From a virus (taxonomy: Duplodnaviria; Caudoviricetes), in the IMG/VR virus record IMGVR_UViG_3300033066_002329, positions 1-64,000 of that record: a stretch of DNA of 64,000 nucleotides. One strand, given 5' to 3'. Both the position numbers and the translations under genes were made by a program. The notes below the pieces were generated by a model. That model had not been told where the DNA came from, searched no databases, and saw only the letters and a list, made by a program, of their open reading frames with translations. Below, piece after piece: positions 7,927-42,993 of this stretch (the stretch's first letter is position 1; every line of letters starts with the position of its first letter).

Positions 7927-7944
7927 CAATTTTAAAAACTTGAG

Positions 7945-8842
7945 ATTACGGTTTTTAGTCCCGAACTTTGGTGGGATTATGTATTCCCCATTAGTCTTTA
8001 TCCAGGTATCTTGCGATACCTATTCGGTAGTCCTGATGAGCTAACGGCCATCACTCTTATCAATTGCTTCTATTCTGCAGATACTTCTCCTATACGATGA
8101 TGCCGCACCATATAAAACTTTCACTACAATCCGCCAAACTTTGTGAGTCTAAACGTTCCTAATTCAATCTTTCGAATGTTAGGATATGAAGAACCTTTCG
8201 AAGACAATCGTGTACGGGGTTTTTACTTTGTGTTATTTTAAACATAAATAGTAGCCTTCCAAGGGCAACTTTCCATCTTTCGATAAAAAGGGTTTCATAA
8301 TGCTCGCTAAGAGACGTACCCGTACAGGGTTGGCTCGGTTCCTTTTGAGAACGGAATACCACTACGCCTCTCTGTAGATGCTGACCGCATCCCACTAATT
8401 AATTTTATACTCTCCATTTGCATCATCCCGTCAAAGATAGCCTTAAATGGTGACGTAAGTATAAAACCTTTTTGACTTATAGCACTTGCCTTGCCTGACT
8501 TGCACAATAAATCTCGACTTTCTTATTTAGATATCCCTATCCTCAACACCACGTCATTATACATGATGTATTTCTCTCATCCATTAAGACATTGAGAAAT
8601 ATACTTATCTTTTGCTTGGTTGTCCTATCCAATGTATTACTACACTGACAAGGCGGAAGTTTGCAAACTCCCCTTTATTCACCATTACTGGGTTTATCTT
8701 TCCCCAGATAATTCCTCTTTCGAGAAACTATCTGTTGAGCCACCTTACGATGACTCAGGACATTGTATAACCTTTCGACTATACCAGGCCCCATGCGACC
8801 TGAATTTTTTTCAATATTTTAAAGAACGTTTCGTTTAATTTT
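7945..8842 (-). ncRNA. large (~0.9 kb) structured non-coding RNA, GOLLD/ROOL-like candidate
   Basis: GC-richer, no credible ORF, many GNRA-capped hairpins, own promoter and terminator, next to tRNA-like genes. Confidence 0.65.
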
Positions 8843-9928: not shown

Positions 9929-9929
9929 G

Positions 9930-10003
9930 CTCTCCTGACAGGACTCGAACCTGCAACCTCTGATGTTAGGGCACCAGCCGTCTACCAGTTGAAATACAGG
10001 AGA
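9930..10003 (-). tRNA. atypical tRNA-Arg(CCT)-like, 8-nt anticodon loop GCCCTAAC
   Basis: Acceptor TCTCCTG/CAGGAGA; T-arm GCAGG TTCGAGT CCTGT; weak D-stem. Confidence 0.55.
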
Positions 10004-10011
10004 ATAATTTT

Positions 10012-10063
10012 AAACCTCCGAGGTTAGGCGCCCCAGCATTCTGCCAGTTGGAACTACAAGGAG
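10012..10063 (-). pseudogene. 5-prime half of tRNA-Arg(CCT), T-arm missing
   Basis: CTCCTTG TA GTTC...GAAT, anticodon loop CGCCTAA, then AT-rich spacer. Confidence 0.55.
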
Positions 10064-10076
10064 AGATTATTTAAGA

Positions 10077-10199
10077 ACGCTACAAAAAGAAGACTAAACG
10101 TAGGATTCGAGTCATGAACTCCCTACCTACATTTCTTCATGATTAACAATCATTACTCCCGTATTAGTTATTTTTCGGTAGTTTAGTCATCTGCATGCA
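10077..10199 (-). ncRNA. structured RNA candidate just downstream of ECF-type promoter
   Basis: GACTAAAC/GTTTAGTC, GTAGG/CCTAC and TGATT/AATCA stems. Confidence 0.4.
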
Positions 10200-17983: not shown

Positions 17984-18044
17984 ACTAATAAATAGTATAA
18001 AAAATTCGAACTTATAATTTCTTATAGACTTTCGTCTTTTAAAG

Positions 18045-18119
18045 TAGCACAAGAGGGACTCGAACCCCCGTCTCTGCCTTATGAGAGCAGCGTAAGTAAA
18101 CCAACTCTACCATTGTGCC
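18045..18119 (-). tRNA. tRNA-Met/Ile2 (CAT)
   Basis: Canonical cloverleaf, loop CTCATAA. Confidence 0.85.
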
Positions 18120-18247
18120 ATAAAATAAATGCTATAAGTGATATTGCAAGCCACGCCCTGGAGGGAGTCGAACCACTCCAAGTTGGGGCCTCGAACCCCG
18201 CCTCACACTTACTCCTACTACCGTTCGGAATAACATTTATTATTTTT

Positions 18248-18571
18248 TTATTTACTAGGATATTTAGAATCCATTTCATCAATCACACTGAAAGGAGAAC
18301 CTCCAATGCCTGAATAACGAATATCGTCAAATCCATTTTCTTTAGTAATAAGAGATTCTTTCTCATCAATAGAACCTCTAAATTTATCAAACCCTTTTTT
18401 GTTTTCAATATTACCAGTTGAAGGATTATAACTTCCCCAATCTGCTGGTCTATCTGTACCAATAGGTTCTACAAAATATTTTTTACCTATTCTATAAGAG
18501 TGTACTATAAATCTACCACTCTCGTCTCTATCTGTTAAAAATTTTTGTCTAAATTCAAATGTTGTTTTCAT
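18248..18571 (-). CDS. hypothetical protein
   Basis: ORF within tRNA operon. Confidence 0.65.
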   Translation of the reverse strand: MKTTFEFRQKFLTDRDESGRFIVHSYRIGKKYFVEPIGTDRPADWGSYNPSTGNIENKKGFDKFRGSIDEKESLITKENGFDDIRYSGIGGSPFSVIDEMDSKYPSK

Positions 18572-18585
18572 AAAAGTTTCTTTTT

Positions 18586-18753
18586 TTATAACTTACTTAG
18601 CTCAAGTTTTAAATCTGCAATTTTTCTTACATAATCTGACACACTAATTTCCTTAGTGTCTGATGTCTTTTTTGTTAAAGACAATGTCATTTCATCTTGA
18701 AGATATTTTATTCTCTCTTCTAATTTTGCTCTTTTTTTATCTACTTTAGCCAT
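18586..18753 (-). CDS. 55-aa hypothetical protein (MAKVDKKRAKLEER...)
   Basis: Manual translation; below ORF-track cutoff. Confidence 0.55.
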   Translation of the reverse strand: MAKVDKKRAKLEERIKYLQDEMTLSLTKKTSDTKEISVSDYVRKIADLKLELSKL

Positions 18754-18893
18754 AACAAGTTTATGTTAGTTTTTTGTTTTTTTCCTCTAATACTTTCCAT
18801 ATGCTGAGCATATATTTTCATAAAGGCTTTCATCTTTTGAATCTTTTCTTCTTGGTGTTTACTTAAGGTGTCACCATCACCATCTGAATCCAT
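18741..18893 (-). CDS. 50-aa hypothetical protein (MDSDGDGDTLSKHQ...)
   Basis: Manual translation; below ORF-track cutoff. Confidence 0.45.
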   Translation of the reverse strand: MDSDGDGDTLSKHQEEKIQKMKAFMKIYAQHMESIRGKKQKTNINLLWLK

Positions 18894-18916
18894 TGGTTTT
18901 TTAAGTTAAATTTTTG

Positions 18917-18991
18917 AGCAGATGACGGGTCTCGAACCCGCAAAACCTCCACCTTGGCAAGGTGGCGCTCTACCAATTGAGCTACATCTGC
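18917..18991 (-). tRNA. tRNA-Gly(GCC)
   Basis: Canonical, loop TTGCCAA, U73. Confidence 0.92.
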
Positions 18992-18993
18992 AT

Positions 18994-19127
18994 AAAACAG
19001 GGATAGTTTATTAAGAGTGTATTTGTTTTGTTAAGCAGGAGTTGAACCTGCATCCTTTTTCTTGACATGAAAACACTCATCCATTGAGCTTTTAACCGAA
19101 GTAACTCTTAAATATTGCCACTGTTTT
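18994..19127 (-). ncRNA. Y RNA-like (Yrl) element enclosing a tRNA-like cloverleaf
   Basis: Shared arms GTGGC..AAGAGTTACTTC / TACACTCTT..ACTATCCC around D-, anticodon- (ATGTCAA) and T-arms. Confidence 0.65.
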
Positions 19128-19128
19128 G

Positions 19129-19202
19129 AGAGAACAATCGGGATTGAACCGACTCTATTTCGCCTTGGCAAGACGATGCACCACCACTTATGCGTCATTC
19201 TC
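19129..19202 (-). tRNA. tRNA-Gly(GCC), second copy
   Basis: Cloverleaf, loop TTGCCAA, U73. Confidence 0.85.
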
Positions 19203-19253
19203 TTGGAGAGGGACAGGTTATTTATACCTTTAAGGGACTCCCTCAGACCCTTG

Positions 19254-19326
19254 AGCGAAAGACGGGGCTCGAACCCGCCACCCTCAGATTGGAAATCTGA
19301 TGCTCTACCAAATGAGCTACTTTCGC
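19254..19326 (-). tRNA. tRNA-Gly(TCC)
   Basis: Canonical, loop TTTCCAA. Confidence 0.92.
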
Positions 19327-19360
19327 ATATACAGGATTACAAGGTTCCTGAGGACCTTTG

Positions 19361-19434
19361 AGCAAGTGACGGGAATCGAACCCGCTCTGTTCCAGATTGG
19401 AAGTCTGGCGCACCACCGTTTATGCGTCACTTGC
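19361..19434 (-). tRNA. tRNA-Gly(TCC), second copy
   Basis: Canonical, loop CTTCCAA. Confidence 0.9.
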
Positions 19435-19437
19435 ATG

Positions 19438-19599
19438 TTGTAATAGTAATTAAAATGAGTAAAATAGACCGCTGGGTTTAGCCACTCCCCCATCTCCCCA
19501 TTTATAATATTTGTGGGGAGAGTACGATTCGAACATACGTAGAGCATAGCTCGGCGGTTTTAACCAATTTTGAAGTAACTCGCATTGTAGCCATTACAA
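19438..19599 (-). ncRNA. YrlA-like RNA with circularly permuted class-II tRNA module
   Basis: Order: conserved arm, variable arm, T-arm, acceptor TCTCCCC closed by loop to GGGGAGA, D-arm, conserved arm. Confidence 0.7.
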
Positions 19600-19605
19600 T
19601 TTTTT

Positions 19606-19720
19606 TATAGGGATAGTTAAGAAGAGTATGATGCTAACCACTTAGCGTCATCCCCATTATTTAATTTGAGGGGATGACAGGAATCGAACCTGCGAAGTAA
19701 CTCTTACTTTTGCCACTATA
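19606..19720 (-). ncRNA. YrlA-like RNA (permuted T-arm / loop-closed acceptor / D-arm)
   Basis: GCAGG TTCGATT CCTGT, CATCCCC..GGGGATG, GCT AAGTGGTT AGC inside the shared bulged stem. Confidence 0.75.
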
Positions 19721-19746
19721 ATATTTTAAATTCAAAGAACTTTCTG

Positions 19747-19823
19747 TGGAGCGTGTCGTATTCGAAACGACCTGATATTCCTCTTTGCAAAAGAGGTGGC
19801 CAGCCCTAGCAGCCCCATGCCCC
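19747..19823 (-). tRNA. tRNA-Ala(TGC)
   Basis: Loop TTTGCAA, G3:U70. Confidence 0.85.
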
Positions 19824-19882
19824 AGTTACCAATTTTTCTTTTATTTTCAGTGTGCGGTTATTGGTTAACCTATCTGCTACTC

Positions 19883-20533
19883 TTAAAATTTTCTTCCTTT
19901 AGTCCAACCTTGTTTCAAATATGAATCTAATTCTTCTTTTTTTATTTTTTTATTTATACTATCTTTTGTTATCCAACATGTTCCAAATTGTGAATTTTTA
20001 TTTCCAATGCCTTGTTTAGATTTAGTTTCACTCATTTTATTTTTAGTTTTTTCATCATGTTGTTTACCATTCCAATCAAAAAAATATTTTCTTTCTCTTA
20101 CTCCTTCTTCATAAGATTTTATTTGACTTTTTATTTTTTTGTTTATCCAATTTTTTTTGAAAATAGTGTCGTTTTTTAATTTTTCATTAAAAGCTTTTTT
20201 ACCAGCCTTAGAACATTTAATCATATGTTCTTTGTTTGAAAAACCTCCTGAACCACCTTCTTTTAAGTTCATACACAAACTATCTAAAAGTAATTCTTTA
20301 TTTATAATTTCAGACTCTCTATTAATCAACAATTCTCTATTTGGTAAAAATTCAAGTATCTCTTTAACGTGATTTTCAATTCCATATTTTCTAATTGAAT
20401 ATCTTAATTTTGTACCTGAACCCATATATCCATCATCTAACTTTGCTGTTGAATGCATGCCTATATACCATTTTTTAGTTACATTACATGTTGTTTTATA
20501 AATGTAATGTATATTCGCTTTTTTTCTTGCCAC
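19883..20533 (-). CDS. GIY-YIG homing endonuclease between two tRNA-Ala genes; paralog of 21394..22059
   Basis: HYIYKTTC...WYIGMHST...YMGSG. Confidence 0.85.
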   Translation of the reverse strand: MARKKANIHYIYKTTCNVTKKWYIGMHSTAKLDDGYMGSGTKLRYSIRKYGIENHVKEILEFLPNRELLINRESEIINKELLLDSLCMNLKEGGSGGFSNKEHMIKCSKAGKKAFNEKLKNDTIFKKNWINKKIKSQIKSYEEGVRERKYFFDWNGKQHDEKTKNKMSETKSKQGIGNKNSQFGTCWITKDSINKKIKKEELDSYLKQGWTKGRKF

Positions 20534-20591
20534 TTTAAATCATTTCTAAATAAATATTTAGAAATTTTAAAAAGTACAAAAAAGTTTAAGG

Positions 20592-20665
20592 TGGAGATGA
20601 CGGGATTCGAACCCGCATACCTTCTGCTTGCAAAGCAGCTGCTCCGCCAGTTGAGCTACATCCCC
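20592..20665 (-). tRNA. tRNA-Ala(TGC)
   Basis: Canonical, G3:U70. Confidence 0.93.
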
Positions 20666-20669
20666 ATGG

Positions 20670-20749
20670 TCGGAAGTTCACAGAAACTAATCCCCTGCCA
20701 GGCAGGAAACATTTCAAAGGAATGACCTAAATCATTTCTGCTCTCCCGA
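20670..20749 (-). ncRNA. small structured RNA candidate
   Basis: TCGGGAG/CTTCCGA and GCAGAAA/TTTCTGT stems enclosing hairpins. Confidence 0.35.
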
Positions 20750-20758
20750 TATTTTTTT

Positions 20759-21175
20759 CTACTTCCACATTCCACCTTGTCCAAGCCATTCAGAATATTT
20801 TTGATTTCTCTTATCTTTTTTTCTTTCTAGGAAATCATCAAATTCTTTAATTAAAGGCTCAGGAATTTTTATATTTTTATCAATGAAAATTTGCATTATC
20901 TCATCTCTCGTAAAGGTCCAATCTACAATTCCGTCTGTCCATTGGTCTCTCCAAAGCCCCCAACCACTCTTACCTGTAAGTACATGCTTTAAAATATTTG
21001 GATGTCTGGTTTTTATTATTTCACCTTTTTGATATTGTCCATTTTCAAGTTTTCTAAAACAAAATTTTGCTTCATCTCCATTTGGGTCAAACATTATTTT
21101 ATTTTTACTCTCAATATCTGAACCACAAAAAGTTGTAATATTTTGTTTTGAGATTTGAAAGAAAAAGTTAAACAT
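20759..21175 (-). CDS. hypothetical protein
   Basis: ORF within tRNA operon. Confidence 0.6.
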   Translation of the reverse strand: MFNFFFQISKQNITTFCGSDIESKNKIMFDPNGDEAKFCFRKLENGQYQKGEIIKTRHPNILKHVLTGKSGWGLWRDQWTDGIVDWTFTRDEIMQIFIDKNIKIPEPLIKEFDDFLERKKDKRNQKYSEWLGQGGMWK

Positions 21176-21332
21176 TGTATTAAAATTATCAGAATACTTT
21201 TGAAGTTTCCGATTGTGTTTTGTTCCAATTACTTTTTTTCTTTCTTCGATTCTTTGTTGCCTTTCTTGGCCTAAATGGCGTCCAAGCTGTGACCTCCTTG
21301 ATTTTTCATTTTTTTAGTTTTTAAATTGTTTG

Positions 21333-21408
21333 TCAGAGTGGCAGGATTTGAACCTGCGAACTCTCGGCTCCTGACCGAGCGCACTAGACCTGGCTATGCG
21401 ACACTCTG
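21333..21408 (-). tRNA. atypical tRNA-Pro(AGG), loop TCAGGAG
   Basis: C1:G72 acceptor CAGAGTG/CACTCTG, intact T-arm, C33 instead of U33. Confidence 0.65.
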
Positions 21409-22059
21409 TTGTTTTCGTCCTTTGAACCACCCTTTTTTAAGGTGCGAATTAAGTTCTTCTTTTTTTATTTTTTTAGCAATACCTTCTTTAACTATCCAAC
21501 AAGTTCCATATTGAGAATTTTTATTTCCAATACGTTGCTTAGCCTTTTCACTCATTAATTCTTTAGTTTTATCAGATAATTTTTTATTAGTATTTGATTT
21601 GTTACCAAAATTCTTTTTTCTAACACCTGATTCAAAACTTATTTTCCAAGCTTCTGATAATGTTTTAGAATATTGTTTAGACCATTCTTCATTTTTAAAT
21701 AACTCTTTCTTTTTTTCATTAGCAGCTTTACTTATTTTTTTTCTTAATTTTATTGATAAACCAATAAGCCCTCCATCTCCTCCTACTTTTAAATTCATAC
21801 ATTCTTCTTTTGCAATTTCATTGAGATTTACAATCTCTCTTTCTCTTGCAGCCAACTGCTGTCTATCTTCAAAGAACTCTAATATTTCTCTTTTATGGTT
21901 TGCTACACCATATTTGTTAACAGAATATCTCAACCTCTTTCCTGAACCCATATAACCATCATCCAAGTCATTGGTTGAGTGCATTCCAATATAATACTTA
22001 CCACTAAGTAAGTTTGTCGTTTTGTATATGAAGTGATACTTCTTTTCTTTTCTTGCCAT
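21394..22059 (-). CDS. GIY-YIG homing endonuclease
   Basis: HFIYKTTN...YYIGMHST...YMGSG. Confidence 0.85.
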   Translation of the reverse strand: MARKEKKYHFIYKTTNLLSGKYYIGMHSTNDLDDGYMGSGKRLRYSVNKYGVANHKREILEFFEDRQQLAAREREIVNLNEIAKEECMNLKVGGDGGLIGLSIKLRKKISKAANEKKKELFKNEEWSKQYSKTLSEAWKISFESGVRKKNFGNKSNTNKKLSDKTKELMSEKAKQRIGNKNSQYGTCWIVKEGIAKKIKKEELNSHLKKGWFKGRKQQSVA

Positions 22060-22106
22060 AATATCCTTTTAAGATAAATAGAAAGAAAAAGTACAAAAAC
22101 GACCAA

Positions 22107-22195
22107 TGGTAGGTGTAGAGGAATTCGAATCCCCTGTGTATCTTACGTTCTTGTTTTACAGACAAGAGTCACTCCACCGCCGTGACCGTACACCC
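22107..22195 (-). tRNA. tRNA-Tyr(GTA) with encoded CCA
   Basis: Loop CTGTAAA, long variable arm. Confidence 0.88.
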
Positions 22196-22206
22196 ATGTT
22201 TTTTTG

Positions 22207-22288
22207 TGGGAGTGGTCAGATTCGAACTGACTCAGCAAAAGCACTTGTTTTACAGACAAGCCCAACTCTCCAACGTTGGCGCACTCCC
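22207..22288 (-). tRNA. tRNA-Tyr(GTA), second copy
   Basis: Loop CTGTAAA. Confidence 0.88.
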
Positions 22289-22392
22289 ATTAAATGACCC
22301 TTTTCAAAGCCATTTTTCACACTGAACAAACAATGTGGTTAGCCATAACTACTTGAAACTATAGACGTCCGTCTCAAGCAATCTTAGGTTAG

Positions 22393-22466
22393 CGGTCCTG
22401 ACGGGACTCGAACCCGCAACCTTCCCGCAGACAACGGGTTATCCTACCAAATTGGACGACAAGACC
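22393..22466 (-). tRNA. tRNA-Asp(GTC), atypical loop TTGTCTG
   Basis: Cloverleaf, G73, pyrimidine at position 37. Confidence 0.8.
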
Positions 22467-22494
22467 ATTTGAGTTTTAAGTTCTCCAACTTTTG

Positions 22495-22568
22495 CGGTCT
22501 GGACGGAATTCGAATCCGCAATCTTTCCCGTGACAGGGGAACGCCATACACCCATATGCTGCCAAACC
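22495..22568 (-). tRNA. tRNA-Asp(GTC)
   Basis: Loop CTGTCAC, G73. Confidence 0.88.
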
Positions 22569-22596
22569 AAATTAAGTTTTAAGTTCTTCAACTATG

Positions 22597-22685
22597 TCGG
22601 GGTAACAGGACTCGAACCTGCATAAGACTTAAACGTCCATTCTTGTTTCCAAAACAAGTCGTCTTCCAATTGACTACATACCCCG
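22597..22685 (-). tRNA. tRNA-Pro(TGG) with unusually long variable region
   Basis: Loop TTTGGAA; ~20-nt variable segment with GAC/GTC hairpin. Confidence 0.8.
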
Positions 22686-22690
22686 TTATG

Positions 22691-22765
22691 TCGGAAAGAC
22701 GGGGCTCGAACCCGCATAATCTCCTCATCCCAAATGAGGCGAGGTCCCAATTCCTCCACTTTCCG
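22691..22765 (-). tRNA. tRNA-Pro(TGG)
   Basis: Loop TTTGGGA, C1:G72. Confidence 0.9.
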
Positions 22766-22826
22766 AATCTGAGAATGATTCACATCATTCTCATAAACTT
22801 TTATTACCAATATGTCAAATAACGCT

Positions 22827-22864
22827 AAAAAAAAACACCCAACTCTTTTGGAATTGGGTGTTTT
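22827..22864 (-). terminator. attenuator terminator of tRNA operon 1
   Basis: AACACCCAATT-CCAAAAG-AGTTGGGTGTT + T run, between leader and first tRNA. Confidence 0.85.
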
Positions 22865-22891
22865 AAGTTTCTTTTATATTTTAAATCAACA

Positions 22892-23011
22892 TCATGACTC
22901 AATATTAAATAACACACCCTCATCCAAGCTATAATCCGCTGGAGCATAACCCGCCCCGCCGTTCATCGGCATTGCAGCTGGCATGTTTGAATATGTATTT
23001 AAAGTTTTCAC
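22892..23011 (-). CDS. 39-aa leader peptide MKTLNTYSNMPAAMPMNGGAGYAPADYSLDEGVLFNIES (attenuator 1)
   Basis: GTG start, TGA stop; 18 of codons 10-30 are Met/Pro/Ala/Gly/Tyr/Asp, the downstream tRNA set. Confidence 0.8.
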   Translation of the reverse strand: MKTLNTYSNMPAAMPMNGGAGYAPADYSLDEGVLFNIES

Positions 23012-23065
23012 CTGTTGTTTTATTTTAAATAGTTAATATTTTTTGTTTTTCAATAATTTCTACGA

Positions 23066-23098
23066 CAAAGATATAAAAAAGTTTCACCTAAATGCAAA
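23066..23098 (-). promoter_or_regulatory. Bacteroidota primary-sigma promoter TTTG-N21-TATCTTTG for leader/tRNA operon 1
   Basis: Consensus match. Confidence 0.75.
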
Positions 23099-23149: not shown

Positions 23150-23872
23150 TTATTCTCTTATAATTTTTTTCTTCATTTTTTCAAAAGAATATTCTTCATC
23201 TGGTTCTGAATCTCCATATAATGATGGCTGAGAATATATAACTTTATCCTCTAAAACTCTTAACTGTGGCTGCATTCCATCAACAGCAGGTACATATAGA
23301 GACCAAAATTCGTCAGAATTTTTAGCTGACCTTGCATAGTGACTAGTCCAAAGGTCACTTTCTTTTTCTTGTTTTTCTAAGAAATCAATAAAATCTTTTC
23401 TTGTAACTATTTCTTTTTTTTCAATCAATAATACATTTACAATACCATTAAACCCTAATTCTTTCGCCATCGGATATTCTTTCAAATCCTTATTTTCAGG
23501 ATTTGGGTCATATACAATATTAAATTTTTTATCAATTAATACTGCATGAGTTATTGGATTAGAATCATTTTTATCAAAGAATTTTGGAGAGTAAACAGAT
23601 GCGTAAAAATATCCATCTACACCATTATATTTATTTAGAGTACTTATAAAAGTTGGAAAATATAAAACTTTTTTATTTAAAGGATTATGAAGAACTCCTT
23701 CATATTGATAATCTGTAGTTTTTAAAAATTCAAGCAAAGGCTCATAATATCCATTCTTATTTTCAATAAAATTTGGAACATCTTCATATTCTTTTTCAAA
23801 CAAAGAAGCGATTGCAGCTCTCATGCAATCGCCCTTATCTTTATCTATCTCTTTCTGATAAACTTCTTTCAT
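23150..23872 (-). CDS. hypothetical protein, possible papain-like peptidase fold
   Basis: GDCMRAAIASL...THAVL. Confidence 0.45.
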   Translation of the reverse strand: MKEVYQKEIDKDKGDCMRAAIASLFEKEYEDVPNFIENKNGYYEPLLEFLKTTDYQYEGVLHNPLNKKVLYFPTFISTLNKYNGVDGYFYASVYSPKFFDKNDSNPITHAVLIDKKFNIVYDPNPENKDLKEYPMAKELGFNGIVNVLLIEKKEIVTRKDFIDFLEKQEKESDLWTSHYARSAKNSDEFWSLYVPAVDGMQPQLRVLEDKVIYSQPSLYGDSEPDEEYSFEKMKKKIIRE

Positions 23873-39370: not shown

Positions 39371-39394
39371 TTTTTTATTTTTGTTTTTTATCCG

Positions 39395-39466
39395 TAGCCT
39401 CGGCAGGAATCGAACCTGCATCTGAAGTTTAGGAAACTTTTATTCTATCCATTGAACTACGAAGCC
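39395..39466 (-). tRNA. tRNA-Arg(CCT)
   Basis: Canonical, loop TTCCTAA. Confidence 0.88.
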
Positions 39467-39732
39467 AAATCATCTTGAATATCATTCCAGATTTGCTTAT
39501 TAATTTTAAACTTTGGAGTACGTTCATATTTTTCATATGTACACATCCAACAATTACATGGCCTTGCTGTCGTTCTTAAAAAAGTGCAAGACTCCCCTTT
39601 TTCTATCTCCTTAATCCACTCTTCTCTTTTTTGTGGATGATAGCTATAAGTTCCTTGAGTCCAAACTTTAATTCTTTTCTTAAACTTTACTTTTTTTTTG
39701 TAACGTCTTAGGGCTCTTTTATAATTTTTCAT
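39457..39732 (-). CDS. basic hypothetical protein with CxCxxC
   Basis: ORF; PCNCWMC. Confidence 0.6.
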   Translation of the reverse strand: MKNYKRALRRYKKKVKFKKRIKVWTQGTYSYHPQKREEWIKEIEKGESCTFLRTTARPCNCWMCTYEKYERTPKFKINKQIWNDIQDDLAS

Positions 39733-39733
39733 A

Positions 39734-39805
39734 TACTTCAGGTGTTATCCTCACCAGAATGCGTCGAAGTATTTCGATTTAGCATCTGGCTTAGCGCCTG
39801 CAGTA
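39734..39805 (-). other. long imperfect hairpin abutting start codon
   Basis: TACT.CAGG/CCTG.AGTA, CCAGA/TCTGG, TCGAA-ATAC-TTCGA. Confidence 0.4.
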
Positions 39806-39855
39806 TCTGAGTTTAATATTAAACATAGTTTTATTTTTTATAAATATACGAATTT

Positions 39856-40584
39856 TTAAGAGAACTTCTCAATCATTTTACGAGAAATCTCCTCCTTAAG
39901 TTGCAAATTTGTTTCATATTTATCAATTTCTACACCTAAATGCCTGGCAATCAAATGAATATTTTTTGTTCCATCCTCATTCATATTTGCCTTTCTAATC
40001 TTTTTATCATAATCTTCATCAAATAGATAAAGTACATGCTTTTCTCCTGCGGACTTAGACATTTTCTTTGTTGGGTCTATAAGTGACATAACCTTGTCTG
40101 CATCTCCAAATTCATATTTATAATATTTTCCATCAACTCTTTTAGATATGTCATTACAAAGGTCTATATGAGCAACTTGGTCTTTACCAACAATAATTAC
40201 ATCTGGGTCATTCATCATAATATCTGCAGCCATAAGTACAGGATATAACAATAGGCCCATATCAAATTTAACATCATCTTTTTTATCCTTGTATTGAGGC
40301 ATCTTAACAAGAGTAGGTAAACTAAGTTTGCAACATAATTTAAAAAAAAGTTCAGTATATTCTGGAGTTTGTCTTTTAATGTTTTTACAGCCAAGTCTAA
40401 TTAATTCTTGCTCTGTTACATCTGAATAATTATCAGTTGTTAGAGCATGATAATTTGCTATAAGAAATGTTACATCGTGACCCTGCGCTTGAAGCTCAAG
40501 TCCTCTCTTAATGCATCCCAAATAGTTTCCGATATGAAGTCGTCCTGTAGGTTGAATCCCAATAAGATATTTTTTTGTTTCCAT
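39856..40584 (-). CDS. trpS: tryptophanyl-tRNA synthetase (short, 242 aa)
   Basis: GIQPTGRLHIGNYLG; YPVLMAADI; VGKDQ; KMSKS. Confidence 0.88.
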   Translation of the reverse strand: METKKYLIGIQPTGRLHIGNYLGCIKRGLELQAQGHDVTFLIANYHALTTDNYSDVTEQELIRLGCKNIKRQTPEYTELFFKLCCKLSLPTLVKMPQYKDKKDDVKFDMGLLLYPVLMAADIMMNDPDVIIVGKDQVAHIDLCNDISKRVDGKYYKYEFGDADKVMSLIDPTKKMSKSAGEKHVLYLFDEDYDKKIRKANMNEDGTKNIHLIARHLGVEIDKYETNLQLKEEISRKMIEKFS

Positions 40585-41027
40585 GATAATGTTTTTAATT
40601 TTGTTTCATTTAAATTTTCTTCACAAAAACCGATAAGTGGTTTTGTTTTAATCCAAGAGTCTTTATCAGAAAGACCTTCAAGAGAAGAATCATCATCAAT
40701 TAAAATAAAATTATCAAAATTATTTTCAGCAATAAATTTTTCAAATTCTTCTTTTCTACTTATATAACCATAAATAGGAACGATACCGTCAATTTGTTTT
40801 TTGATATTTCTATTTTTAAATATTTGATTTAACTCTTCATTTTTTTTTGTTCTTCTCCTATCAGAGATAAGCCATAATTCAAAATTTAAATCATCTGTAA
40901 GCTCATTAAAATTATCTACAGCTATAGAGTTGAATTTTGAATAACCATCGCTTTCTAATTCATCTCTACGCCAAGAAGGAGTTGTAATAAGAACTCCATC
41001 CAAGTCTAATATAATTACATTTTTCAT
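40470..41027 (-). CDS. HAD phosphatase, Swiss-Army-knife RNA-repair type
   Basis: IILDLDGVL...ILIDDD; likely start ATG 41027. Confidence 0.7.
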   Translation of the reverse strand: MKNVIILDLDGVLITTPSWRRDELESDGYSKFNSIAVDNFNELTDDLNFELWLISDRRRTKKNEELNQIFKNRNIKKQIDGIVPIYGYISRKEEFEKFIAENNFDNFILIDDDSSLEGLSDKDSWIKTKPLIGFCEENLNETKLKTLSWKQKNILLGFNLQDDFISETIWDALREDLSFKRRVTM

Positions 41028-41030
41028 TTG

Positions 41031-41104
41031 CACTAGCGGCAGGAATCGAACCTGCCCACGGAGATTTGGAGTTTCCATCGCCTACCCTTGGGACATTCGC
41101 TAGT
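41031..41104 (-). tRNA. tRNA-Trp(CCA), atypical D and anticodon stems
   Basis: Loop CTCCAAA, G73, A30:C40 mismatch. Confidence 0.8.
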
Positions 41105-41198
41105 ATGTGATGATTCTCATTACTATTGAATCATCATTGAATTGCATCCTTCCTTTCGTAAGTGAGTAAGAGATTTAAAAATCTCAGCAATTCTATTG

Positions 41199-41269
41199 CA
41201 CGCCTGGACAGATTCGAACTGCCATCAAAAGTTTTGGAGACTTCTATTCTACCATTGAACTACAGACGT
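41199..41269 (-). tRNA. tRNA-Trp(CCA)
   Basis: Canonical, loop CTCCAAA, G73. Confidence 0.9.
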
Positions 41270-41278
41270 ATATTTTTG

Positions 41279-41355
41279 CAGCCACCACGGGAGTCGAACC
41301 CGTATGTATCCAGTTACTCTTTCAACTGTTTAGAAGACAGAGGAGTTATGCAGCC
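41279..41355 (-). ncRNA. rearranged tRNA-Arg(TCT)-like RNA (anticodon arm inside D-stem)
   Basis: ACTC [CTGT CTTCTAA ACAG] GAGT, then AACTGGATA, then T-arm ACGGG TTCGACT CCCGT. Confidence 0.65.
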
Positions 41356-41453
41356 ATAATAAAAAATAATTATGAATAACTGGAATTGCGATATTCCATT
41401 ACGTTATTAGCGTTGTCGCAGTCTCACTACTATACAGCCATAATTATTTTTTG

Positions 41454-41526
41454 TGACCCTAGAGGAATTCGAATCCCCATTAAAAGCTTAGAAGGCTCTT
41501 GTCCTATCCAGTTGAACGATAAGGCC
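41454..41526 (-). tRNA. tRNA-Arg(TCT)
   Basis: Canonical, loop CTTCTAA. Confidence 0.9.
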
Positions 41527-41607
41527 ATTTATAGTTAGTCTAAGTAGTTTTATGATGCCAACTATTAAATGCATCCTCATAACGGATTACTACAATCCTT
41601 GAATTTG

Positions 41608-41688
41608 TGCTAAGTAGTGGAGTCGAACCACCAGATAATCAGTACGTACATAACTATCTTTCCAAATGCATGCTTATTTGACCTCAAC
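41608..41688 (-). ncRNA. tRNA-like RNA without a recognisable anticodon loop
   Basis: T-arm GGTGG TTCGACT CCACT; stems CAAAT/ATTTG and AGATAGT/ATTATCT. Confidence 0.4.
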
Positions 41689-41692
41689 ATTG

Positions 41693-41780
41693 CGGAAGCA
41701 GTCGTATTCGAAACGAGCCCAACTAAATGGGTTCTTGTTTTCCAAACAAGCAAGAGCCACCTGCCCTATCTTCAACTTCC
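41693..41780 (-). tRNA. tRNA-Ser(GGA)
   Basis: Loop TTGGAAA, long variable arm, G73. Confidence 0.85.
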
Positions 41781-41781
41781 A

Positions 41782-41870
41782 TGGCGGAAAACGGAGCAAT
41801 CGAAGCCCAGTCAAATTAATGACCCTCTCGCTTAGCAGGCGGAGATAGAACCCTGTCTATTTCGTTTTCC
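41782..41870 (-). tRNA. tRNA-Ser(GCT) with encoded CCA
   Basis: Loop CTGCTAA, long variable arm. Confidence 0.88.
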
Positions 41871-41939
41871 ATTTTTTATGCGGAACTAAAAAGATTCAAA
41901 AATCAATTTTTACCACATATTTATTATAAAACTTAATTT

Positions 41940-42605
41940 ATGAAACCATTATATACTCAGCAACAATTTGACAGTGCTAAATCAAGAGATAAACTTCCTT
42001 GTGAATGTTATATTTGTAAAAATACTTTTTATAAAATAAAGTATGATATACAAAAACATTTAAACTCTAATAATATGCACAAAATAAAATACTGCTCTTC
42101 TAAATGCACTATTACTAAACAAACAGTTAACTGTATTCAATGTAATAAATCATTTTCTAAAGTTTTAAATCAAATCAAAAAAACAAAGAATAATTTTTGT
42201 TCAAAATCTTGTGCTGCAACTTACAACAATGCTCATAAGACCATTGGCACAAGACGTTCAAAACTTGAAATTTATCTTGAACAACAACTTACAACCTTAT
42301 ATCCAAATCTTCATGTTGACTTCAACAAAAAAGAAGCGATTAATTCTGAACTTGACATCTACATTCCATCTTTAAAACTTGCATTTGAGCTTAATGGCAT
42401 CTATCATTATGAGCCAATTCATGGTCAAAATAAATTAAGTCAAACACAAAATAACGACCAACGTAAATTCCAGGCTTGTATTGAACAAGGTATATCACTA
42501 TGTATAATTGATGTCTCTAAACAAAAATACTTTAAAGAAAGTACAAGTCAAGAGTTCTTAAGTATTATAACTGATATCATAAACAATATGTCAAAGAACA
42601 TTTAA
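41940..42605 (+). CDS. PD-(D/E)XK homing-type endonuclease antisense to tRNA-Ser genes
   Basis: C-terminal half nearly identical to 9248..9928. Confidence 0.8.
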   Translation: MKPLYTQQQFDSAKSRDKLPCECYICKNTFYKIKYDIQKHLNSNNMHKIKYCSSKCTITKQTVNCIQCNKSFSKVLNQIKKTKNNFCSKSCAATYNNAHKTIGTRRSKLEIYLEQQLTTLYPNLHVDFNKKEAINSELDIYIPSLKLAFELNGIYHYEPIHGQNKLSQTQNNDQRKFQACIEQGISLCIIDVSKQKYFKESTSQEFLSIITDIINNMSKNI

Positions 42606-42609
42606 TCAG

Positions 42610-42696
42610 AGGAGAGTGGAGGAACCGACCCCCTATCAGCTCATCACCGAAACCATAGTTTTCAAGACTATTTGCGCTCCATGCACGGCACTCTCC
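42610..42696 (-). tRNA. tRNA-Ser(TGA), degenerate T-loop, U73
   Basis: Loop CTTGAAA; acceptor GGAGAGT/ACTCTCC; T-loop TCGGTT. Confidence 0.65.
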
Positions 42697-42706
42697 ATTT
42701 TTATTC

Positions 42707-42740
42707 AAAAAAAAATCCTGATTCTTTTGGAACCAGGATT
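42707..42740 (-). terminator. attenuator terminator of tRNA operon 2
   Basis: AATCCTGGTTC-CAAAA-GAATCAGGATT + T run. Confidence 0.85.
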
Positions 42741-42781
42741 CAATATTGTAATTTAATTTATCTCTTATAACGTAAAAAAAA

Positions 42782-42868
42782 TTATGACAATATATGGCCT
42801 GGTTCGGAGTTTCTTGAACTCGAACTTGAACTTCTCCAAGACCATCTATATGTTGTTAATACTTTCAT
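42782..42868 (-). CDS. 28-aa leader peptide MKVLTTYRWSWRSSSSSSRNSEPGHILS (attenuator 2)
   Basis: ATG..TAA; 13 of codons 8-21 are Arg/Trp/Ser, the downstream tRNA set. Confidence 0.85.
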   Translation of the reverse strand: MKVLTTYRWSWRSSSSSSRNSEPGHILS

Positions 42869-42913
42869 TACTTTTAAATAGTGTAAAATTTTATTTTTTA
42901 TATTTTCTACGCA

Positions 42914-42945
42914 CAAATATATAAAAGGTTTCAATTAAATGCAAA
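42914..42945 (-). promoter_or_regulatory. Bacteroidota primary-sigma promoter TTTG-N20-TATATTTG for leader/tRNA operon 2
   Basis: Consensus match. Confidence 0.75.
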
Positions 42946-42993
42946 TATTTTTTTAATTTTATTTCTTTCTACTTGAGAATCAGTGTTTTATTT

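Follow-up and report, generated by a model that had tools for sequence, protein, structure and literature searches.

Probable trp-operon-style control of phage tRNA genes: a leader ORF whose codons match the tRNA array behind it

The leader-peptide attenuators of enterobacteria include multivalent examples, thrL (Thr/Ile) and the ilvGMEDA leader (Ile/Leu/Val), as well as trpL, hisL, pheL and leuL, and in E. coli such an attenuator, the pheM leader, also controls phenylalanyl-tRNA synthetase (pheST). Control of tRNA genes is, in the textbook view, exerted at the level of the promoter (growth rate, stringent response), and the tRNA arrays of phages are viewed as compensation for codon usage, for host tRNA degradation or for tRNA-targeting defences. 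Here, we analyse a locus at which phage tRNAs probably come under control in the style of the trp operon, being transcribed only when ribosomes decode their codons slowly: on the minus strand, a promoter box is followed by a 39-codon ORF, a strong terminator and a Pro/Asp/Tyr/Ala/Gly/Met tRNA array. The closest known systems in function are the multivalent thrL and ilv leaders. For the pheL leader, a description is given in PMC3082878.

The window, i.e. the whole stretch of DNA that was analysed (64,000 nucleotides), consists of the initial 64 kb of a virus record in IMG/VR that is 88.9 kb long, with an estimated completeness of ~29% and a G+C content of ~30%; it contains two minus-strand tRNA arrays and one GOLLD RNA. 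The features of the leader region ahead of the first array (unit 1), together with this array and a second such region (unit 2), are as follows:

23061..23098, minus strand: promoter-like box, sharing 83% identity with the region that precedes paralogous unit 2
22892..23011, minus strand: leader ORF of 39 codons, GTG start at 23011, TGA stop at 22894..22892
22989..23002, minus strand: segment 1, candidate protector strand (full-length minimum-energy fold)
22922..22984, minus strand: regulatory codon run, codons 10-30, 18 of 21 for Met, Pro, Ala, Gly, Tyr or Asp
22911..22927, minus strand: segment 2, predicted 5' strand of the antiterminator, TTGGATGAGGGTGTGTT, within codons 29-34
22864..22848, minus strand: segment 3, terminator 5' arm and start of the loop
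22827..22864, minus strand: intrinsic terminator, hairpin 22864..22832 of 14 bp, T9 at 22835..22827
18044..22765, minus strand: tRNA array 1, proposed to be attenuator-gated, ~4.7 kb, called by ARAGORN
42707..42956, minus strand: paralogous unit 2, with the same promoter box, leader, segment 2 and terminator

Upstream of unit 1 lies a gene of 240 aa, which ends at 23150 and has no relatives in IMG/VR. The promoter-like box consists of TTTG (23098..23095), TGAAAC (23086..23081), TAtcTTTG (23073..23066) and CGTA (23064..23061), with TAtcTTTG representing a Bacteroidota-type -7 box, and would place the transcription start near 23060. An A-rich untranslated stretch of ~50 nt leads from the box to the leader ORF, which encodes MKTLNTYSN-MPAAMPMNGGAGYAPADYSLD-EGVLFNIES at exactly the position given in the preliminary description and whose GTG start has no Shine-Dalgarno sequence, an absence that is usual in Bacteroidota. 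The promoter boxes are the only feature that points to a Bacteroidota host; no phage named for such a host was present among the 40 records listed by a GenBank protein search with the homing endonuclease of the array as query, and a DNA search of GenBank phages gave matches to tRNAs only. A spacer of 29 nt separates the stop codon of the leader from the terminator hairpin, and a further 61 nt separate the terminator from the first tRNA, with no Bacteroidota-type promoter box found between terminator and tRNAs. The terminator loop, TTCCAAAAGA, recurs in unit 2, and all five further genomic copies of this sequence lie in coding regions. A perfect 9-bp inverted repeat (GAGAATGAT-GTGA-ATCATTCTC, 22771-22792, minus strand) immediately precedes the first tRNA and may act as a processing signal.

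Array 1 comprises, in order, Pro, Pro, Asp, Asp, Tyr, Tyr, Pro, Ala, Ala, four Gly, an Asp-like gene (which ARAGORN reports only when its threshold is lowered) and Met, with the anticodons Pro-TGG (two), Asp-GTC (two), Tyr-GTA (two), Pro-AGG, Ala-TGC (two), Gly-TCC (two), Gly-GCC (two) and Met-CAT. Between these tRNA genes are GIY-YIG homing-endonuclease ORFs (21394-22059 and 19883-20533, minus strand): relatives of the homing endonuclease are found in tRNA arrays on 43 further phage contigs, and the enzyme is distantly similar to T4 SegB (~36% identity), with SegB-like genes found by the GenBank protein search.

Several further observations concern the arrays and their surroundings. Most tRNAs of the two arrays (18044-22765 and 39394-42696, minus strand) stand next to, or close to, a second gene of identical anticodon (Pro-Pro, Asp-Asp, Tyr-Tyr, Ala-Ala, Gly-Gly, Arg-Arg and Trp-Trp), with one copy often longer or atypical, such as the 90-nt Pro gene at 22596-22685; the same pairing is seen in the related arrays L117, L124 and L127. 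The GOLLD RNA (7937-8372, minus strand; Rfam 156.5 bits, above the gathering score) lies ~10 kb downstream of the end of array 1. A non-canonical tRNA-like gene called by ARAGORN at 9929-10003 (region 9929-10085, minus strand) has an apparently 8-nt anticodon loop containing CCUAAC, for which ARAGORN reports a 2-base anticodon; by eye only, a sequence resembling this gene is found just upstream of it, and a TGAAAC-N16-CGTA promoter-like box (10236-10211) lies further upstream. Odd tRNAs of this kind are also present in L129, L130 and L135-L137.

Comparison of the leader with array 1 bears out the central count of the preliminary description: 18 of the 21 core codons belong to the six amino acids whose tRNAs follow, as called by ARAGORN, and the synonymous codons said to be sampled (CCA/CCG; GCT/GCA/GCG; GGC/GGG/GGT) are all present in the sequence. 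The three core codons without a matching array tRNA are AAC, AGC and TTG. In the best window of the leader, MPAAMPMNGGAGYAPADY, 17 of 18 codons fall within the amino-acid set of the array (binomial p = 7e-12 at a background frequency of 0.19 for this set), and the match score of unit 1 is 10.9 compared with a maximum of 3.3 for 37 unrelated arrays. At the level of anticodons, at least one leader codon is found for TGG, TGC, GCC, TCC, GTA, GTC and CAT, with Pro-AGG the sole array 1 anticodon lacking one (3-base anticodons at the default ARAGORN threshold). As a control, each of 41 non-redundant leaders from the family described below was scored against the amino-acid set of every array: the median score was 6.4 for cognate and 0.88 for unrelated arrays (Mann-Whitney p = 5e-24), and the cognate tRNA set beat every unrelated array in 35 of the 41 units. 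In most of the other six units, the array covers nearly every amino acid or is curtailed or divided by the following unit, or else the ORF is doubtful. A chance origin of the codon match is excluded. The circuit appears to be resolved to anticodon families, with Arg codons in the leaders tracking the anticodons downstream: AGA occurs with Arg-TCT and CGN with Arg-ACG or Arg-TCG, and where both kinds of anticodon follow the leader has one codon of each. Ser AGY codons of the leaders often stand without a called tRNA, probably because ARAGORN misses odd Ser-GCT genes.

The second line of evidence is an RNA pairing that competes with the terminator. A leader segment had been reported to pair with the terminator 5' arm and loop at 11 of 14 positions, and both coordinates and pairing were reproduced: TTGGATGAGGGTGT (22927..22914) and ACACCCAATTCCAA (22861..22848) form 5 + 6 bp around a 3x3 internal loop. 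With -16.7 kcal/mol, the duplex of segment 2 and the terminator 5' arm is an alternative fold of competitive stability, comparable to the terminator hairpin itself (-16.5 to -18.2 kcal/mol, depending on trimming). This cognate duplex ranks first when compared with 43 other arms (z -2.9), and an upstream segment restricted to the ORF gives a z of -3.2 (-3.5 against shuffles). Over 44 units, cognate pairing beats non-cognate pairing (Wilcoxon p = 1.7e-13), the ORF-only segment gives the same result, and z lies below -2 against shuffles in 34 of them.

Two further pattern scans provided ten distinct orthologs of unit 1. All ten leaders start with ATG or GTG, indels within the ORF are without exception multiples of three, unlike those past the stop codon, and changes in the GYAPADYS codons are synonymous. 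At segment 2, the peptide varies among the orthologs while the RNA pairing is kept, with compensatory pairs comprising GGGTGT/ACACCC, GGAAACGGGT/ACCCGTTTCC, GGAAGCGGGT/ACCCGCTTTC, GGGTAGCGAGT/ACTCGCTCCC and GGAACGAGT/GCTCGTTTC; the cross matrix of segment 2 against terminator arm is block-diagonal. Pairings were compared per sequence, since the MAFFT alignment placed the terminators of three orthologs one column out of register. Together with the codon match and the antiterminator seen in truncated transcripts (see below), the compensatory changes in these ten orthologs support the attenuator interpretation put forward in the preliminary description. One ortholog (L177 1455-1650), with a weak terminator (-8.6 kcal/mol) and a weak antiterminator (-6.4), may be a decaying copy. 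The 21-nt GYAPADYS-codon pattern also matches an unrelated, highly conserved stretch at L161, L165 and ~30 other metagenome loci; this stretch occurs on many human-gut and other metagenome contigs, and its frames are not leader-like.

Equilibrium folding with nucleotides masked for a ribosome, akin to the co-transcriptional folding suggested with the initial claim, gave a divided answer. When the transcript is cut before the 3' arm, the minimum-energy fold of unit 1 contains the antiterminator, and the probability that the 5' arm is paired upstream is ~0.6 with the A site at codons 1-27 (0.2-0.3 at codons 21-22) but only 0.05-0.19 at codons 28-37; unit 2 shows a similar dependence on ribosome position. 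The full transcript of unit 1, in equilibrium folding, forms the terminator with P = 0.96 at every position of the masked ribosome, which rules out an equilibrium competition as the switch: as the terminator wins everywhere, any switch must be kinetic, like that of the classical attenuators, although this result does not itself speak for the kinetic model. Of the proposal that a ribosome stalled at codons 10-30 frees the pairing segment, the part through codon 27 is in keeping with the truncated folds, whereas a ribosome at codons 28-30 would mask the antiterminator. Moreover, a ribosome on the stop codon (28-nt footprint) no longer covers segment 2, and hence the state of plentiful aminoacyl-tRNA must rely on timing, steric exclusion or a helix between segments 1 and 2. 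Segment 1 is part of the conserved N-terminal codons and, solely in the minimum-energy fold of the full-length RNA, pairs with a stretch including segment 2; both strands of this putative 1:2 protector helix are conserved, and the helix is seen in one minimum-energy fold. Termination in the state of plenty is thus the weakest part of our model.

In spite of this, it is probable, to judge from the sequence, that unit 1 is a ribosome-mediated leader-peptide transcription attenuator that gates the phage tRNA operon; we infer leader translation, stalling, the kinetic competition, the direction of the response and its physiological trigger. Transcription would begin at the conserved promoter box, and a ribosome would translate the 39-codon leader while RNA polymerase heads for the terminator. 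With Met, Pro, Ala, Gly, Tyr and Asp aminoacyl-tRNAs in plentiful supply, the ribosome would reach codons 28-39 and there cover or unwind segment 2 (22927..22911), allowing the terminator hairpin to form and ending transcription at T9, ahead of the first tRNA. Slow decoding of any such codon would instead stall the ribosome at around codons 10-27 and leave segment 2 free to pair with the emerging terminator 5' arm, upon which the polymerase would read into the ~4.7-kb array. As the products of the array are the molecules being sensed, the circuit would represent a closed feedback loop on tRNA supply.

The reading of UGA bears on where the leader ends. The remark in the preliminary description that no other UGA-terminated ORF had been noticed was roughly right: of 65 long frames in the record, only 2 have a terminal TGA. 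If TGA is translated as sense, 16 long frames and 15% more codons are gained (TAG: 4 frames), and a partial recoding of TGA in this phage is plausible on these counts; such recoding would shift the end of the unit 1 leader. The leaders of the orthologs end at the same place, with TAA (7 of 10) or TGA, and we therefore treated TGA as a stop in unit 1. If it were read through, the next stop would be TAA at 22876..22874, with the ribosome 9 nt from the hairpin, although any significance of this is speculation.

A self-search of the DNA revealed the promoter box a second time, at 42956..42872 (83% identical), ahead of the second tRNA array. The leader of this unit 2 (42868..42782, 28 codons) encodes MKVLTTY-RWSWRSSSSSSR-NSEPGHILS, with the peptide head as in unit 1 and a core of 12 consecutive Arg (AGA), Trp and Ser (TCT/TCA/TCG/AGT) codons. 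The array behind it consists of Ser-TGA, Ser-GGA, two Arg-TCT, two Trp and finally Arg-CCT; both Ser genes, as well as one Arg-TCT gene, are called only at a lowered ARAGORN threshold. The match score of unit 2 is 9.6 against a null maximum of 4.0. Its terminator (42740..42707) has the loop of unit 1, TTCCAAAAGA, on a different stem, and its segment 2, GAACCAGG (42805..42798), complements CCTGGTTC in this terminator: the geometry is that of unit 1, written in different letters. A Ser-GCT-like gene can be made out by eye near 41880..41790.

Similar units are found in other phages. Our sample consisted of 43 other loci obtained via the homing-endonuclease relatives, nearly all of which are tRNA arrays and many of which lie on large contigs, with 40 kb of the 642-kb phage LR756502.1 added. 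In an unbiased census, we paired every terminator found no more than 450 nt from a tRNA with the longest ORF of 15-70 codons whose end shortly precedes this terminator, and obtained ~50 leader-terminator units, 41 of them non-redundant. Leaders include QPQPQQHPQ ahead of Pro/His/Gln tRNAs, LVLCLCVLVL ahead of Cys/Val/Leu tRNAs, FDFNFEAAEADF ahead of Phe/Glu/Asp/Ala tRNAs, YQPKQYTQGG ahead of Pro/Gln/Tyr/Thr/Gly/Lys tRNAs, NTNRNMVVTAKAT ahead of Thr/Lys/Asn/Arg/Val/Ala/Met/Gly tRNAs, HMSSINIWRRNS ahead of His/Trp/Ser/Asn/Met/Arg tRNAs and SSRSRSS ahead of Arg/Ser tRNAs. Nearly all start with MK/MR/MN..NI or ..TY, and the gap from stop codon to terminator is 18-41 nt (median 27.5), so that a terminating ribosome does not reach the hairpin. 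TAnnTTTG is present upstream of 37-39 of 44 units (two counts), but just 2 of 44 have it in the interval from the terminator to the first tRNA, so that RNA polymerase must cross the terminator to transcribe the tRNAs. An ECF-type promoter was also considered, but TGAAAC-N16-CGTA, whilst fitting units 1 and 2, is found in only 10 of 44 units compared to 39 of 44 for TAnnTTTG, and we thus claim no ECF sigma factor. Two units of LR756502.1 (L154 19689-19840 and 20397-20533) are embedded in a tRNA array, where they immediately follow tRNAs and lack a promoter box; these would be internal gates that subdivide one transcript. A scan of IMG/VR with the shared terminator loop and T-run gave 108 matches, and those inspected were coding or unrelated terminators, with no matching leader-terminator unit among them.

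Different explanations of unit 1 can be weighed against these results. The attenuator could be the same and its signal something other than a tRNA shortage brought about by host defence or shut-off, namely amino-acid starvation or simply the added demand made by AT-rich phage genes late in infection, making it a general gauge of translation load: a stalled ribosome is blind to the cause of aminoacyl-tRNA scarcity, as established for trp and his attenuation, and the leaders do sample many amino acids at once. We consider this unlikely, given that extra tRNA would be no help when the amino acid itself is missing and that the Arg codon boxes of the leaders track the downstream anticodons, which favours the sensing of tRNA species. 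Leader translation could also act by another route, through pyrBI-type coupling, Rho-dependent polarity or stall-induced RNA cleavage, and in case of coupling the sign would be reversed, with fast translation causing read-through. That the antiterminator is never favoured in the complete transcript in equilibrium folds, and that a ribosome at the stop codon leaves segment 2 uncovered, would fit such routes; but coupling is at odds with the gap of 18-41 nt that separates ORF and hairpin in every unit and keeps a terminating ribosome out of reach, and none of these routes gives a role to the covarying pairing of leader and 5' arm, so that we regard them as very unlikely.

The remaining explanations dispense with attenuation altogether. 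Were the ORF an ordinary small gene or a chance frame, with the hairpin ending an upstream unit and the tRNAs served by their own promoter, the GTG start without a Shine-Dalgarno sequence and a TTGACA hexamer past the terminator (22817..22812) would find an easy place; yet the codon match excludes a chance frame, conservation extends to the RNA pairing but not to the C-terminal peptide, the upstream gene is separated from the leader by the conserved promoter box, and a Bacteroidota -7 box hardly ever occurs in the stretch from terminator to tRNA, leaving this explanation scarcely credible. The least probable of all, to the point of being negligible, is that the small peptides are themselves the product, for instance as precursors that join a conserved MKxLxxY/I head to a variable core, and that their adjacency to tRNAs is incidental: across units the N-terminus is indeed conserved and the core hypervariable, but in each unit this core tracks which tRNAs lie downstream, and every ORF comes with a terminator and an antiterminator to match. 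The preferred reading thus remains that of a ribosome-mediated attenuator that senses tRNA supply.

Beyond unit 1, we lean somewhat towards the view that Bacteroidota-type large phages carry a family of 'checklist' attenuators, through which each tRNA operon would be inducible and would sense the decoding speed of the codons read by its own tRNAs. If so, the measurement would be made at the level of anticodon families and a block would be switched on only when its tRNAs run short, for example upon depletion by host anticodon nucleases or host shut-off, with the tRNAs regulating their own transcription via the ribosome. If transcription of tRNAs were gated by a translated sensor of codon-specific decoding speed, this would represent a new regulatory logic for tRNA supply: it would explain the fixed amino-acid sets of huge-phage tRNA genes and their recurrence across phages, as well as how the making of ~30 tRNAs is avoided when the host pool suffices, and phage tRNA arrays would come to be seen as inducible responses, perhaps directed at host defences that cleave tRNAs. 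The leaders would then be natural, modular sensors of individual tRNA pools. In a literature search, we did not find a leader-peptide attenuator described ahead of phage tRNA arrays or for tRNA genes; a possible attenuator-like leader before E. coli pheV was discarded as a precedent, as the K-12 upstream sequence has no Phe-rich small ORF.

Comparison with known systems places unit 1 as follows. The T-box riboswitch (RF00230) shares with it a tRNA-responsive choice between terminator and antiterminator in a leader RNA, but binds uncharged tRNA directly via a specifier codon and without translation, whereas unit 1 has a conserved ORF of translated type and gives no RF00230 match even at E <= 10. 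In pyrBI-type leaders the ORF runs into or over the hairpin, in contrast to a stop 29 nt before it in unit 1. The Rfam Trp, His, Leu, Thr and Phe leader families do not match at their gathering scores, the best being Phe_leader with 17.2 bits (cut-off 55), driven by the terminator. Existing accounts of phage tRNA arrays concern the same gene cargo of large phages as is found here. In case of E. coli pheST, a component of the translation apparatus is likewise placed under leader-peptide attenuation that reads the supply of charged tRNA, but the gene is bacterial, a synthetase is controlled and one amino acid is sensed, whilst unit 1 would control a whole tRNA array. With thrL- and ilv-type leaders, unit 1 has in common a short promoter-proximal ORF with a run of regulatory codons, an intrinsic terminator placed ahead of the first gene, an antiterminator that makes use of the 5' arm of this terminator and the sampling of several amino acids per leader. 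It differs from them in being phage-borne with a Bacteroidota-type promoter, in belonging to leaders that sample up to six or more amino acids with codons that follow the encoded anticodons, and in that it would regulate tRNA genes instead of biosynthetic enzymes, making the sensed molecule and the product the same kind. Since the genes under its proposed control are tRNAs and homing-endonuclease ORFs, and not those of a biosynthetic pathway or a synthetase, we regard unit 1 as a variant of the classical attenuators and not as one of their members.
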